Shown one piece after another: positions 8,629 through 33,578 of a DNA stretch of 64,000 bases. The notes under the pieces are model-generated. The model was not told where the DNA came from and did no database searches. It saw only the letters and a program-made list of their open reading frames with translations. Source of the DNA: Eledone cirrhosa (Eukaryota). A program made the position numbers and the translations under genes. Location: positions 65,224,001-65,288,000 of the forward strand of contig OZ024740.1 of assembly GCA_964016885.1 (NCBI GenBank), written 5' to 3'. Position 1 is the stretch's first letter. Each line of letters begins with the position of its first letter.

Positions 8629-8784
8629 ATACATGTTATACATTAATATATATGATAAACACAAAATGTGTTTGCATTGTAACAGACAAAGTTAGCTATA
8701 AATGAAATAAACTAATTAAAGTGAATACAATTTGTCTGTCTCGATATAAGTCAATAAAGACAAGCTTATATTGGCAAAAGCCGT

Positions 8785-8934
8785 GATTCCTGGATAAATC
8801 TAAATTTCAAAATCCAAACCCGCTCCGTAGACGAATTTGAACTTCGAAACCTAAATATGTTTCGCAACGATGGTACATGAATTGAAAAATAAAAAGTGAA
8901 ATATCCAAATCTTCTGTGCTTATCAACAGGAATC
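8785..8934 (-). ncRNA. Second copy of the oversized hammerhead (ATC cleavage triplet)
   Basis: Reverse complement of 9517-9666 with a few substitutions. Confidence 0.75.
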
Positions 8935-9516
8935 CAGTAAAATTAGTACATTCCACCATCAAACATTTTGCAGGTCTGACTACACGTGTGTGTAGCCAGC
9001 CAAACTAGCCGTCCCGCATTCCCGGTGCTAGAAATAACAGCCGTTTATACGGGATTAAAGATCAGCTCTACAGTTAAGGAGCAATATACTATATTATATT
9101 TTGAGATTAAACTCTCAGTCGTTTACAATTAATCAGCTGCAAGAAAGAGGCATTTCCGAGCAGTATATCGAGACAGACAAATTGTATTCACTTTAATTAG
9201 TTTATTTCATCGATAGCTAACTTTGTCTGTTACAATGCAAACACGTTTTGTGTTTATCATATATATTAATGTATAACATGTATTTAACTGCTCGGAAATG
9301 CCTCTTTCTTGGAGCTGATTAATTGTAAACGACTGAGAGTTTAATCTCAAAATATAATATAGTATATTGCTCCTTAACTGTAGGGCTGATCTTTAATCCC
9401 GTATAAACGGCTGTTATTTCTAGCACCGGGAATGCGGGACGGCTAGTTTGGCTGGCTACACACACGTGTAGTCAGACCTGCAACATTTTTGATGGTGGAA
9501 TGTACTAATTTTACTG

Positions 9517-9666
9517 GATTCCTGTTGATAAGCACAGAAGATTTAGATATTTCACTTTTTATTTTTCAATTCATGTACCATCGCTGCGAAACATATTTAG
9601 GTTTCGAAGTTCAAATTCATCTACGGAGCGGGTTTGGATTTTGAAATTTAGATTTGTCCAGGAATC
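9517..9666 (+). ncRNA. Oversized type I hammerhead ribozyme, U3:A8 core variant
   Basis: GATTCCTG (9517-24) - TTGATAA - GCA..TGC - GAAA (9588-91) - 65-nt stem III rod with cTACGg loop - GTC (9656-58) - CAGGAATC. Confidence 0.8.
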
Positions 9667-9733
9667 ACGGCTTTTGCCAATATAAGCTTGTCTTTATTGA
9701 CTTATATCGAGACAGACAAATTGTATTCACTTT

Positions 9734-30900: not shown

Positions 30901-30985
30901 TCCTTAGTTACAGCATTATGTAGTAGTTGATGGTAAATACTGCGCTCCACTTGATATAGGTTGCCAGTTTTGTCGGAATGGACGT
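27982..30985 (-). mobile_element. 5'-truncated Naiad-type PLE (family B) with a nested SINE
   Basis: ORF 29520..31025 (HSDKTGNLY, TLKDHK, QFDINNYY, MGAGDSA, GFYRDD) and GIY-YIG tail 29188..29484; 3' UTR closely matches 16330-17460. Confidence 0.92.
28203..28387 (+). mobile_element. tRNA-derived SINE (~185 bp) with an 18-bp TSD
   Basis: A box TGGCAGTATCGG, B box GAGTTCAAATCC, central gactttgcctt(g)catccttacg..gtcgataaaataaagtaccag. TSD attaataggagc(g/a)gtgaa at 28185-28202 and 28388-28405. Confidence 0.93.
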
Positions 30986-31689
30986 GCATGCGTGTAGCCA
31001 GCATATGTACGAGACACAAATACACACACTCTCACACACATATATGTAAGTGTACATCCACACGTACATAGACACACACGCACACACTCCCCCCCTTTTC
31101 ATATAAATCGGGAAACTAATAAGTCTTTTATCACAGTTTTTTCGTTTCCTTGAACTATATCTGTTAGACACGCAGTGACTAACTAACAAGAAGAATGTTT
31201 TAAATCTGCGTGTCTGATCTGACTGACATACATGCGTAGCTTGGGAATAAAACAAATCAAGGGGTATCGCTGGCCGTGGTGATCCCCCCCCCCCAAGCAT
31301 ATTTTGTAATGTATCGTCTTATTGGCTAATTTCATCGTCATATTGGCTATTCAACCAACGAGAGTAATTGTTGCTCAAAAGCATCTGCCACTTTGTTTCC
31401 ACGTTTATTTATCGTTTCGCTTTCGAATCTTCCTCCAGTATTTCGTCGTTTATCATCAAAATATTTTTCTCGTTTTGGTAAGTTATATTGTTAATTTATA
31501 TATGATTTTTTAAATTTATATTAACTATTAGAAGTCTGAAAATATTTTTATACATCTTACAATAATATTTATATGATCATTTGTAAAATAACAATTATAT
31601 AATCTAATTACATTACAACGATAATTTAGTATTAATTTATATCATGTTTAACTAGAGTTATTACAAGCGTTTCCTTAAAAACATATTAA

Positions 31690-32136
31690 ACTAGACCTGA
31701 AAAATGTGCAGGCTCAAAAGAGCCACAGAATGTTATAAAAAACCTTCAAACGTGTGGGACTAGAGTTGTTGCTCAAAAATATTGTAATGATTATCTATCG
31801 TACACACTGTGGCACCCTTTTATAAAAAAAGAGACTCATAACGAACTGAAGACGACACGATAATTATTTAAGTGAATTTATAATATATAATTCGGTTTAA
31901 GTGCATTTCGTATTAATCATTACTAAACATCTAATATGAGATATTGAACATTAGCTTAAATAATTATCGTGTCGTCTTGAGTTCGTTATGAGTCTCTTTT
32001 TTATAAAAGGATGCGGCAGAGTGTACGATAGATAATGATTACAATATTTTTGAGGAACAACTCTAGTCCCACACTTTTGAAGGTTTATTATAACATTCTG
32101 TGGCTCTTTTGAACTTGCGCATTTTTCAGGTCTAGT
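31690..32136. mobile_element. Fold-back element with ~182-bp arms and CTAG termini (MITE or inverted Helitron-type ends)
   Basis: 31690-31872 and 31955-32136 are imperfect inverted repeats with an ~82-bp AT-rich spacer. Confidence 0.75.
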
Positions 32137-32207
32137 ATATATATATATATATATATATATATATATATATATATATATATATATATATATATATATATAT
32201 ATATATA

Positions 32208-33578
32208 TTCAGTTTAGTAGTCAGTTACAAATATTAAGCTCTAAGAAAATACTTCTGAGCATTACATTATAATTTAAAAAATAATAAAAAAAAATATATG
32301 ATCAACACTACTGTGTTTTTTTTGCAAAATGACAATCATTTTTTAACCAGATAGAAATACCTTAATTCAAGTACATATAGTCCGTCTGTATCGATCTAGA
32401 GAATATTAAATATTAAATCTATACTTACAGACGTAAAATGGCAACTGCCTGGTGCCTAGACAAGTTTAAATTTCAAAATTCAAACCTTTTCAGCAGATCG
32501 GGCAGAACTTCCAAACGTAAACCTGTTTCACAAGGGATGTTATACTAATGAAATCATTAATTAATTACGGAAAAACTATTTATAAAATAATTATTAGTAA
32601 AGTAATCAATTTTCTGTGATCTTCGGTAGGCACCCAGAAATTAAAATCACTTCTCCTAAGATAATATCTTAAGACTGATCTGTCGCAAGCCTAATACATG
32701 TGCTTTTGCACACGACCTTCTCAGCATTCTGGCTCATATCCATGGCGCTAGAAATAGCAGCCATGAATATGTGATTATGAATTCAGCTCACAGTAGGAGC
32801 AGATTAATTTCAGTTTAGTAGTCAGTTACAAATATTAAGCTCTAAGAAAATACTTCTGAGCATTACATTATAATTTAAAAAATAATTAAAAAAAATATAT
32901 GATCAACACTACTGTGTTTTTTTTGCAAAATGACAATCATTTTTTAGCCAGATAGAAATACCTTAATTCAAGTACATATAGTCCGTCTGTATCGATCTAG
33001 AGAACATTAAATATTAAATCTATACTTACAGACGTAAAATGGCAACTGCCTGGTGCCTAGACAAGTTTAAATTTCAAAATTCAAACCTTTTCAGCAGATC
33101 GGGCGGAACTTCAAAACGTAAACCTGTTTCACAAGGGATGTTATACTAATGAAATAATTAATTAATTACGGAACAACTATTTATAAAATAATTATTAGTA
33201 AAGTAATCAATTTTCTGTGATCTTCGGTAGGCACCCAGAAATTAAAATCACTTCTCCTAAGATAATATCTTAAGACTGATCTGTCGCAAGCCTAATACAT
33301 GTGCTTTTGCACATGACCTTCTCAGCATTCTGGCTCATATCCATGGCGCTAGAAATAGCAGCCGTGAATATGTGATTATGAATTCAGCTCACCGTAGGAG
33401 CAGATTAATTTCAGTTTAGTAGTCAGTTACAAATATTAAGCTCTAAGAAAATACTTCTGAGCATTACATTATAATTTAAAAAATAATAAAAAAAAATATA
33501 TAATCAACACTACTGTGTTTTTTTTGCAAAATGACAATCATTTTTTAGCCAGATAGAAATACCTTAATTCAAGTACAT
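32208..33578 (-). mobile_element. Retrozyme-like element, locus 3: 601-bp unit x2.3
   Basis: ttcagtttagtagtcagttac at 32208, 32809 and 33410; copies nearly identical; shares motifs and helices with loci 1 and 2. Confidence 0.88.
32451..32634 (-). ncRNA. Oversized type I hammerhead, CCGAAGA (U4C) core; second copy at 33052-33235
   Basis: Minus strand: GGTGCCTA CCGAAGA tcacag..cttgt GAAA caggttta..taaactt GTC TAGGCACC. Base of stem II is weak. Confidence 0.7.

Follow-up and report, generated by a model that had tools for sequence, protein, structure and literature searches.

The described systems closest to the repeat family that we report here from Eledone cirrhosa are the animal non-LTR retrozymes, which are non-coding, low-GC, self-paired repeats with one type I hammerhead per unit, present in thousands of copies, from monomers to multimers, in genomes with Penelope-like elements (PLEs) (Cervera and de la Pena 2020, PMC7229834). 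The Eledone family shares these properties: its units (GC content 32-35%) are non-coding and self-paired, carry one type I hammerhead each and occur in thousands of copies, as monomers to multimers, in a genome with PLEs. An earlier, sequence-only reading of this DNA had called the family retrozyme-like, and as a non-coding, type I hammerhead-bearing, multi-copy retroelement it deserves that description. The same reading placed its size beyond that of known retrozymes, yet units of 518-601 nt fall within the consensus lengths of 51-972 bp given in a 2026 preprint (10.64898/2026.07.22.740005).

Several features set the family apart. Animal type I motifs usually have a helix I of 6 bp, a helix II of 4 bp and a helix III of 1-2 bp, whereas the Eledone ribozyme spans 128-184 nt, with a ~28-bp helix III, a 2-3-bp helix II and a long predicted pseudoknot. 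A U.U pair at the base of helix II, as in the 601-nt subfamily, is also reported for an axolotl family. Furthermore, the Eledone family consists mostly of dispersed inverted insertions in (TA)n. It has a conserved motif in common with its candidate helper, while a 2020 review describes retrozyme repeats as lacking a conserved motif that identifies the helper (PMC7761336). The mobiliser of animal retrozymes has so far been argued from co-occurrence and likeness to pLTRs.

Hydra-clade PLEs share with the Eledone family (TA)n targets, 5' truncation, partial tandems, an inverted arm, a tail at one end only and a hammerhead near the 3' end (Craig et al. 2021, PMC8557442), and the U3-A8 core variant is also known in PLE ribozymes. 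In contrast to these PLEs, the Eledone unit lacks an ORF and its tail measures 70-95 nt rather than the 30-40 bp described, and its ribozyme cannot be aligned to those of the autonomous Hydra-clade families seen. The Poseidon PLE of Anolis likewise has AT-rich targets and two internal RT starts that define the tail; in vitro, it requires RNA 3' of these starts (Frangieh et al. 2024, PMC11167929), which is where the Eledone hairpins sit relative to the ends. The Poseidon start, however, lies in an AC-rich stem-loop inside the ORF, whereas the two predicted Eledone starts are AU-rich, each having its own RCTC..GAGY hairpin on the 3' side, and the genomic pairs of the Eledone family have one site per arm.

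Units and insertions in the window and the genome

The insertions are dispersed, Penelope-type and located in (TA)n; they are randomly 5'-truncated, often with an inverted arm, and have a one-sided tail. Their two fixed 3' ends, one short (proximal) and one long, are AU-rich, lie ~70-85 nt apart and 160-250 nt downstream of the cut site, and have an RCTC..GAGY hairpin within a few bases 3' of each. Inverted arms were present in 23 of 50 insertions sampled; 19 of the 23 pairs combined a long with a short end, none combined two long or two short ends, and four had one odd end. The arms comprise 0.05-6.5 units, head to head, and 7 of 77 are long enough for two ribozymes. An apparent cluster of 5' ends close to a possible transcription start disappeared in an unbiased sample. 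This combination of fixed 3' ends, truncated 5' ends, an inverted arm, a tail on one side and (TA)n targets matches that of a PLE-mobilised repeat.

In the window, i.e. the whole 64,000-nt stretch of DNA that was analysed, the unit lengths are 539 nt (locus 1), 518 nt (locus 2) and 601 nt (locus 3). These lengths agree with the sequence-only reading, as does the lack of coding capacity: the longest ATG frame of the circularised units has 36-50 aa, and the unit carries no RT-endonuclease ORF. That reading also proposed tandem units at all three loci, alignable only in short blocks. Instead, the units align over their whole length, with 72-73% identity in aligned columns and scores far above those of 20 shuffles, and only locus 3 is a true tandem (2.28 units); it is also the only window locus where one strand carries two complete ribozymes. 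Locus 1 consists of a 1.06-unit arm head to head with an inverted 0.99-unit arm, and locus 2 of a 1.41-unit arm with a 0.35-unit inverted arm. The (TA)n targets, inverted arms, pseudoknot and autonomous PLEs in the following list were absent from the earlier reading.

8178-8653 (unstranded): (TA)n tract, the insertion target, bordering the locus 1 minus arm on its 3' side
8629-9164 (-): locus 1 inverted arm, 0.99 unit, terminating at the short (proximal) 3' end
8785-8934 (-): complete type I hammerhead fold, mutated copy with U3-A8 core and cleavage triplet ATC
9164-9733 (+): locus 1 direct arm, 1.06 units of 539 nt, without its 3' end
9290-9315 (+): locus 1 hairpin 1 (RCTC..GAGY), directly 3' of the short end
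9369-9386 (+): locus 1 hairpin 2, directly 3' of the long end; one base altered in this copy
9493-9516 (+): 5' strand of the predicted pseudoknot helix; partner at ~9535-9556, in loop II
9517-9666 (+): complete type I hammerhead fold of locus 1, core UUGAUAA (U3-A8), predicted cut after 9658; it has an 8-bp helix I, a 3-bp helix II and a ~28-bp helix III capped by cUACGg
18738-18771 (unstranded): (TA)n tract bordering the locus 2 minus arm at its short end
18770-19495 (-): minus arm of locus 2 with the short end (1.41 units of 518 nt)
18927-19054 (-): complete type I hammerhead fold of locus 2, canonical CUGAGGA core, G10.1-C11.1, predicted cut between 18935 and 18934
~19056-19081 and ~19013-19036: predicted pseudoknot strands of locus 2
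19244-19272 and 19186-19200: hairpins of the locus 2 minus arm
19496-19677 (+): inverted arm of locus 2 (0.35 unit), which has the long end and a tail; its hairpin 1 occupies 19612-19640
19677-19732: (TA)n after the locus 2 inverted arm
20785-25870 (+): autonomous Hydra-clade PLE with RT and GIY-YIG, frame broken in this copy, candidate helper type; its inverted arm has the short end, its direct arm the long end
25684-25779: small hammerhead of that element
25798-25821 and 22353-22374: start hairpins of that element
32136-32208 (unstranded): (TA)n tract bordering the locus 3 arm at its long end
32208-33578 (-): arm of locus 3 with the long end (2.28 units of 601 nt)
32238-32260, 32839-32861 and 33440-33462: copies of locus 3 hairpin 1
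32786-32800 and 33387-33401: copies of locus 3 hairpin 2
32451-32634 (-): complete type I hammerhead fold of locus 3, variant core CCGAAGA (U4C), U.U at the base of helix II, helix/loop II of 90 nt
33052-33235 (-): second complete type I hammerhead fold of locus 3, identical variant core
33579-33743 (-): part of the 3' UTR of an autonomous Hydra-type element; it abuts the locus 3 arm at the arm's 5' end, with no (TA)n in between
33744-34497 (+): 3' UTR of that autonomous element, forming the opposite arm of the locus 3 insertion
34399-34453: small hammerhead within the 33744-34497 arm
34498-34574: (TA)n after the short end of the 33744-34497 arm

Genome-wide, a 20-nt helix III pattern had 3,870 exact matches against 4 for its reversed control. 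The hammerhead pattern is thus not due to chance, and the family is dispersed to thousands of sites; as exact pattern matches, these copy numbers are lower bounds. The 16-nt motif GRCTGYTATTTCTAGC (10,938 matches) was rejected as a copy count, because it is not specific to the family, which accounted for 5 of 30 sampled loci. Head-to-tail multimers reach 6.5 units and hold no ORF. There is no LTR, the arm ends adjoin (TA)n directly, and no PBS or PPT was seen by eye. One chimera excepted, no contiguous ORF lies next to the family arms. Pattern searches of metagenome and viral contigs gave no match, Tandem Repeats Finder with a period limit of 500 missed the units, and no element of this kind turned up in literature searches aimed at cephalopods. 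Among the sequencing runs listed as containing the unit, none was an RNA run. The unit is also covered by two contig sets from a single sample; their kind is not recorded, and they are uninformative on expression.

A shared start signal and the template of reverse transcription

The autonomous elements in the window have long and short ends and hairpins like those of the unit. For two further autonomous families, a hairpin behind the long end was predicted in advance and proved to be present; three autonomous families carry a hairpin 3' of each of their ends, and a fourth carries one 3' of its short end. Hairpins aside, the unit has no alignable likeness to the terminal repeats of the three autonomous families compared. 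The shared hairpin start signal and the insertion anatomy tie the family to Hydra-clade PLEs.

The best explanation, to which we assign a probability of roughly 0.6, is that these repeats are animal non-LTR retrozymes parasitising Hydra-clade PLEs, whose RT acts in trans, probably on a circle. A two-ribozyme copy would be transcribed, its RNA cut to monomers and the monomers ligated into circles. The Hydra RT-endonuclease, probably as a dimer, would bind both hairpins, nick both (TA)n strands and prime cDNA internally, just 5' of each hairpin. Copying round the circle until drop-off would then give head-to-head arms of 0.05-6.5 units. The Poseidon PLE similarly extends both strands and has been modelled as a dimer (PMC11167929).

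A circular template may be inferred from three genomic signs. The 77 arm lengths follow a single exponential (KS p 0.91), without a step at unit length; the 5' ends show no clustering at the cut site; and rare variants are common to laps in 310 of 518 cases and to opposite arms in 50 of 93, against 1,794 of 21,133 between insertions. Long, uncleaved multimeric transcripts could also account for the shared variants and the exponential lengths. Possibly, though in our view unlikely, the Hydra helper copies linear read-through RNA from tandem copies, so that template switching or unequal exchange would produce the multimers and the ribozyme would do no more than trim transcripts or serve as a folded scaffold. 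This would be in line with the Poseidon system, where ribozyme mutants insert normally, the main template in vitro is uncleaved RNA and no reads terminate at the ribozyme site (PMC11167929). Template switches do occur in our family, as its chimeric insertions show, and a 6.5-unit array has some variants in subsets of laps, as after local duplication. Yet, a linear template would lose the distal hairpin and 5' sequence in every round, and its length must therefore be regenerated. Arm lengths without a step at unit length, multimers that align unbroken and compensatory change that keeps the catalytic core across subfamilies also argue against it.

A bolder version of the retrozyme reading is tentative, with somewhat less than an even chance: an active new hammerhead subclass, with a long pseudoknot, minimal helix II and very long helix III, would drive a circular RNA with a two-hairpin start cassette; RCTC..GAGY would be a general Hydra-clade RT signal; and a dimer would prime both target strands in one event. 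If RCTC..GAGY is such a signal, the helper of an animal retrozyme would be named through a shared cis signal, and the hairpin could offer a portable RNA tag to write cargo into (TA)n. Two-hairpin priming by a dimer, if true, would account for the one-sided PLE tail and for the need for templates longer than one unit.

The hammerhead fold and its predicted pseudoknot

The 8-bp stems I, core boxes and GAAA were located where the sequence-only reading had placed them at the three loci. Its GTC cleavage triplet is likewise in place, except that the copy at 8785-8934 has ATC. The type I order of three helices, the core boxes and the NUH triplet are all present. The oversized hammerhead of that reading is thus a type I fold, but of a different build, with a helix I of 8 bp, a helix II of 2-3 bp, a helix III of ~28 bp and a predicted pseudoknot. 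Two of the three window subfamilies have variant cores, U3-A8 in one and U4C with U.U in the other.

The fold is genuine, with covariation in at least eight subfamilies. Among 14 representatives, both sides change in 6 of the 8 helix I pairs, the core 3-8 pair is C-G in seven, U-A in six and U-G in one, and the second helix II pair is kept in all (8 C-G, 6 A-U). None of 500 shuffles reached the covariation score, although this significance is too strong because the subfamilies are related. Across 92 ribozyme contexts, the 3-8 pair is Watson-Crick in 90 and the helix III loop is UNCG in 55. Helix III has 461 G-U versus 32 A-C juxtapositions; this excess, together with the UNCG loops, indicates selection on the sense RNA.

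A pseudoknot of ~22 bp is predicted between the 5' flank and loop II, and in this model stands in place of loop-loop contacts. The flank/loop II duplex has -13.5 to -23.1 kcal/mol in 14/14 representatives, values reached by at most 5 of 200 shuffles. Cognate strands pair at a mean of -17.6 versus -12.1 for swapped strands (permutation p 4e-5, again too strong for related subfamilies), and in only 4 of 9 rows is the cognate pair the best. No such long pseudoknot is present in the single autonomous ribozyme examined for it (-5.0 kcal/mol). Pseudoknot-stabilised hammerheads similarly have a short stem II and a pseudoknot that holds stems I and II (Perreault et al. 2011, PMC3088659), and a large helix III permits monomeric cleavage in long-helix-III ribozymes of fungal and protist PLEs (PMC4209133). 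Pseudoknots in the accessible parts of these two sources have 4-6 bp, in contrast to the ~22 bp predicted here. The Eledone fold joins this predicted helix to a ~28-bp helix III, in an animal repeat, and widens the known hammerhead architectures in animals.

The RNA of this family is probably self-cutting. A covarying 3-8 pair marks the active hammerhead conformation. A C3G/G8C rescue has been seen in the Poseidon PLE ribozyme (PMC11167929). Conversely, the fold might be dead or off by default, with the 5'-flank helix as an inhibitory alternative structure and the shape selected for protein binding or RNA stability. With a folding program unable to form pseudoknots, the pairing probability of the weak helix II is at most 0.03 in all three units, and that of helix I, which faces competition, is 0.05 in the circular 518-nt unit. 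The young and numerous 601-nt subfamily has U4C and U.U at 10.1-11.1, and U4C reduces hammerhead activity in vitro (PMC3088659). We nevertheless consider an inactive fold very unlikely: the flank helix draws on other bases than helix I and the two can form together, the 3-8 pair covaries, and pseudoknot-stabilised hammerheads with a 1-bp stem II are fast (PMC3088659). In a published report on predicted frog retrozyme dimers, 8 of 9 failed to cleave.

In line with the expectation that standard descriptors would miss this ribozyme, Rfam gave no hammerhead family among 104 matches for the whole window (E up to 10) or among 4 matches for the narrowed ribozyme stretch. The missing match is a detection limit rather than a defining feature, and similar families may therefore go unnoticed elsewhere.

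Candidate helper proteins and chimeric insertions

An intact 717-aa protein has a C-terminal GIY-YIG, RWK-like and DKT motifs, a CxCX5C linker, and CxxC and CxH motifs. These motifs and the (TA)n target place the candidate helper proteins in the Hydra clade; the label Neptune was dropped after the motif check. Pfam returned no family for five frames of Hydra proteins.

Two chimeric insertions, one of them locus 3 with an autonomous Hydra-type element, join the unit to one autonomous 3' UTR at an identical junction site. These chimeras, the shared start signal and the rule of one end per arm point to Hydra-clade PLEs, so that the family would add an insertion anatomy and a start signal that link retrozymes to this clade. 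A PLE ORF directly downstream of the unit, noted in two cases, proved to be a separate insertion across (TA)n.

Least probable of all is that the units are pLTR fragments of an unsampled autonomous Hydra element with this same large ribozyme. In its favour, PLE copies are mostly 5'-truncated 3' ends, published retrozymes have been described as PLE pLTR derivatives, and our genome matches are the best 40 or first 100 places among those listed. Against it, multimers of up to 6.5 units hold no ORF, ribozymes are small in both autonomous families whose ribozymes were read, and of the 187 loci with family arms (among 212) a Hydra-protein match occurs at 17, separated from the arm by (TA)n in 16 and a one-off chimera in the 17th.

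Hydra-type proteins are abundant, with 33,079 candidates in the genome. The best 150 of these are at least 95% identical, and hence young, and many have open frames near 784 aa.

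Repeat units and ribozyme fold

The units of locus 1 (539 nt), locus 2 (518 nt) and locus 3 (601 nt), one subfamily each, contain no reading frame longer than 50 aa, in line with their earlier description as non-coding. The sequence-only reading had them aligning only in short blocks, whereas all three align from end to end at 72–73%. It had also described tandem repeats at all three loci. In a self-comparison of the window, this holds for locus 3 only (2.28 units); locus 1 consists of a 1.06-unit arm (an arm being the part of an insertion in one orientation) and an inverted 0.99-unit arm, head to head, and locus 2 of a 1.41-unit arm plus 0.35 unit inverted. 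The stems I, core boxes, GAAA and GTC that it had named were all present at their places in the sequence.

Complete type I hammerhead folds in the window
9517–9666, plus strand, locus 1
8785–8934, minus strand, locus 1
18927–19054, minus strand, locus 2
32451–32634, minus strand, locus 3
33052–33235, minus strand, locus 3

As anticipated for standard descriptors, the Rfam comparison recovered none of this fold. The 3.0-Gb assembly containing the window holds 840–1,309 candidate places per unit, and exact helix III patterns gave 1,547 and 3,870 genomic matches, compared to 0 and 4 for reversed controls. The fetched loci yielded 105 distinct ribozyme contexts, of which 13 were truncated or rearranged and were left out. 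The 92 with a recognisable 5' half, from a set biased towards the three window subfamilies, comprise at least eight subfamilies. A 16-nt motif kept in all three units (9409–9424, 19149–19164 and 32747–32762) matches exactly at 10,938 places in the genome, most of them in repeats unrelated to these units, and may serve as a common promoter or as a site for protein binding.

The proposed pairing was borne out by covariation among 14 chosen representatives: none of 500 shuffles matched the score, a result inflated by the relatedness of these representatives. Their paired cells amount to 93%, and both sides changed in 6 of the 8 pairs of helix I. Helix III is ~28 bp long; its variation is mostly exchange of A-U and G-U (461 G-U versus 32 A-C), and in 55 of 92 contexts it is capped by a UNCG loop, a stable type of loop. 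Of the 92 contexts, 52 have C-G at the core 3-8 pair and 38 have U-A. Helix II has just 2–3 bp and was not predicted alone in the folding computation (pairing probability ≤0.03). In all 14 representatives, the 25-nt stretch on the 5' side of helix I shows complementarity to the 25 nt that directly follow helix II. Cognate pairs of this duplex were more stable than swapped pairs, with the cognate partner best in its own row in only 4 of 9 cases. The flank helix can form as a predicted pseudoknot, because the bases used lie outside helix I. With the support of pseudoknot-type contacts, hammerheads whose stem II measures 1 bp are fast (PMC3088659).

The 601-nt subfamily carries U4C and a U·U at the base of helix II, both known from natural ribozymes (PMC7229834, PMC3088659); the activity of its predicted ribozyme is uncertain. 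In a 601-type copy fetched from elsewhere in the genome (L075 1349–1536, -/+ as fetched), U3/U4/A8 replaces C3/C4/G8, a compensatory core switch inside one subfamily. A U3-A8 core and a long helix III are described for fungal and protist Penelope-like elements (PLEs), together with a circular-template model (PMC4209133).

Animal non-LTR retrozymes are already known (PMC7229834, PMC7761336), and a PLE origin for them is argued in a 2026 preprint (10.64898/2026.07.22.740005). The units had been thought larger than known retrozymes; that preprint gives consensus lengths of 51–972 bp, and their size is therefore not new.

Insertion anatomy

At the 60 best-match loci, arms end at two fixed positions per subfamily, 160–250 nt 3' of the cut site (short end, proximal; long end, distal), mostly with (TA)n next. 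An unbiased sample was drawn with a pattern located close to the 3' end in the 518-nt subfamily. The first 100 of its 128 matches represent 57 insertions, of which 50 were analysed, excluding 7 previously fetched. Among the 23 inverted-arm insertions, 19 combined a long and a short end, none had the same end twice, and 4 had one odd end. The 27 single-orientation insertions had the short end (15), the long end (10) or another end (2). The 5' ends were scattered, with 2 of 77 arms starting no more than 10 nt from the cut site, and arm lengths of up to 6.46 units fit one exponential (n = 77, a few internal fragments among them). Laps, and likewise opposite arms, had rare variants in common far more often than separate insertions did, and hence both arms stem from one template lineage. 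One-sided tails are already known in PLEs (PMC8557442).

In another fetched locus (L196), a 6.5-unit array, some variants are repeated in part of the units, which suggests later local duplication. Long palindromes, several of them next to (TA)n (31683–32144, 39732–39990, 46280–46639 and 27468–27814), probably represent inverted insertions formed from the 3' ends of other families of the Penelope type.

Autonomous Hydra-clade elements

The window also contains several elements with reverse transcriptase (RT) and GIY-YIG frames, which Pfam did not detect.

Hydra-clade PLE families in the window, RT and GIY-YIG frames
20785–25870
16240–18744 with 28388–31031
40040–44769
14025–15471
60900–61344

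An intact relative has RWR, DKT, CxCX5C, CxxC and CxH, all marks of the Hydra clade according to PMC8557442, which also gives (TA)n as the target of this clade. Wherever both arms of a Hydra-clade insertion in the window can be read, one has the short end and the other the long end. Copies of these elements are young and very numerous. For instance, a genome search found 33,079 candidate places for one very young family, with many intact frames and head-to-tail copies spaced ~3.5 kb (L151, a fetched locus).

Other elements in the window are a frame encoding RVT_1 and zf-RVT domains, from a non-LTR retrotransposon (1373–4501, minus strand), and an HTH fragment of a mariner-type transposase (56890–57384, plus strand).

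Shared hairpins, template and chimeras

An RCTC..GAGY hairpin lies a few bases 3' of each of the two ends of the unit. One autonomous family likewise has it at each of its two ends, and two others have it at their short ends. For two further autonomous families, its presence behind the long end was predicted beforehand, and it was then found in a tandem copy, where the sequence past that end can be read. A pattern requiring RCTC had the same junction in 31 of 41 matches; six matches that were read had the full hairpin (4) or a one-base variant (2), with an ORF next in 4. Searches of the literature outside subscription journals returned no description of this hairpin pair, of the one-end-per-arm rule, or of such a ribozyme build in an animal repeat.

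Since the distal hairpin is left uncopied at the long end, the template must reach past it. Fold, covariation, insertion anatomy and hairpins are direct observations; in the mechanism we propose, the ribozyme RNA would be cleaved and then ligated to a circle, and a dimer of the Hydra-clade protein would prime on both nicked target strands, with one hairpin-marked site for each. The proposed two-site priming fits the in vitro behaviour of the Poseidon PLE, which starts internally at two sites, requires downstream RNA and extends both strands (PMC11167929). The main rival explanation is that the template is a linear multimer. It is kept in play by the same Poseidon PLE, which inserts in vitro without need for ribozyme cleavage (PMC11167929).

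No unit was contiguous with its own ORF among 212 loci checked. Locus 3 is a single insertion flanked by two (TA)n tracts. On its 5' side, the retrozyme arm, with the long end, passes into the 3' UTR of an autonomous element; the 3' end of that same element, with the short end, forms the opposite arm. A second locus has the same junction between a retrozyme unit and the autonomous 3' UTR. Alternatively, later deletion could imitate such chimeric insertions. Three chimeras (window 33579–33600; L076 1550–1575 and L224, both fetched loci) share one site of switching, either into or out of a single autonomous 3' UTR. This site adjoins a C-rich tract, and a stall or an RNA end is possible there.
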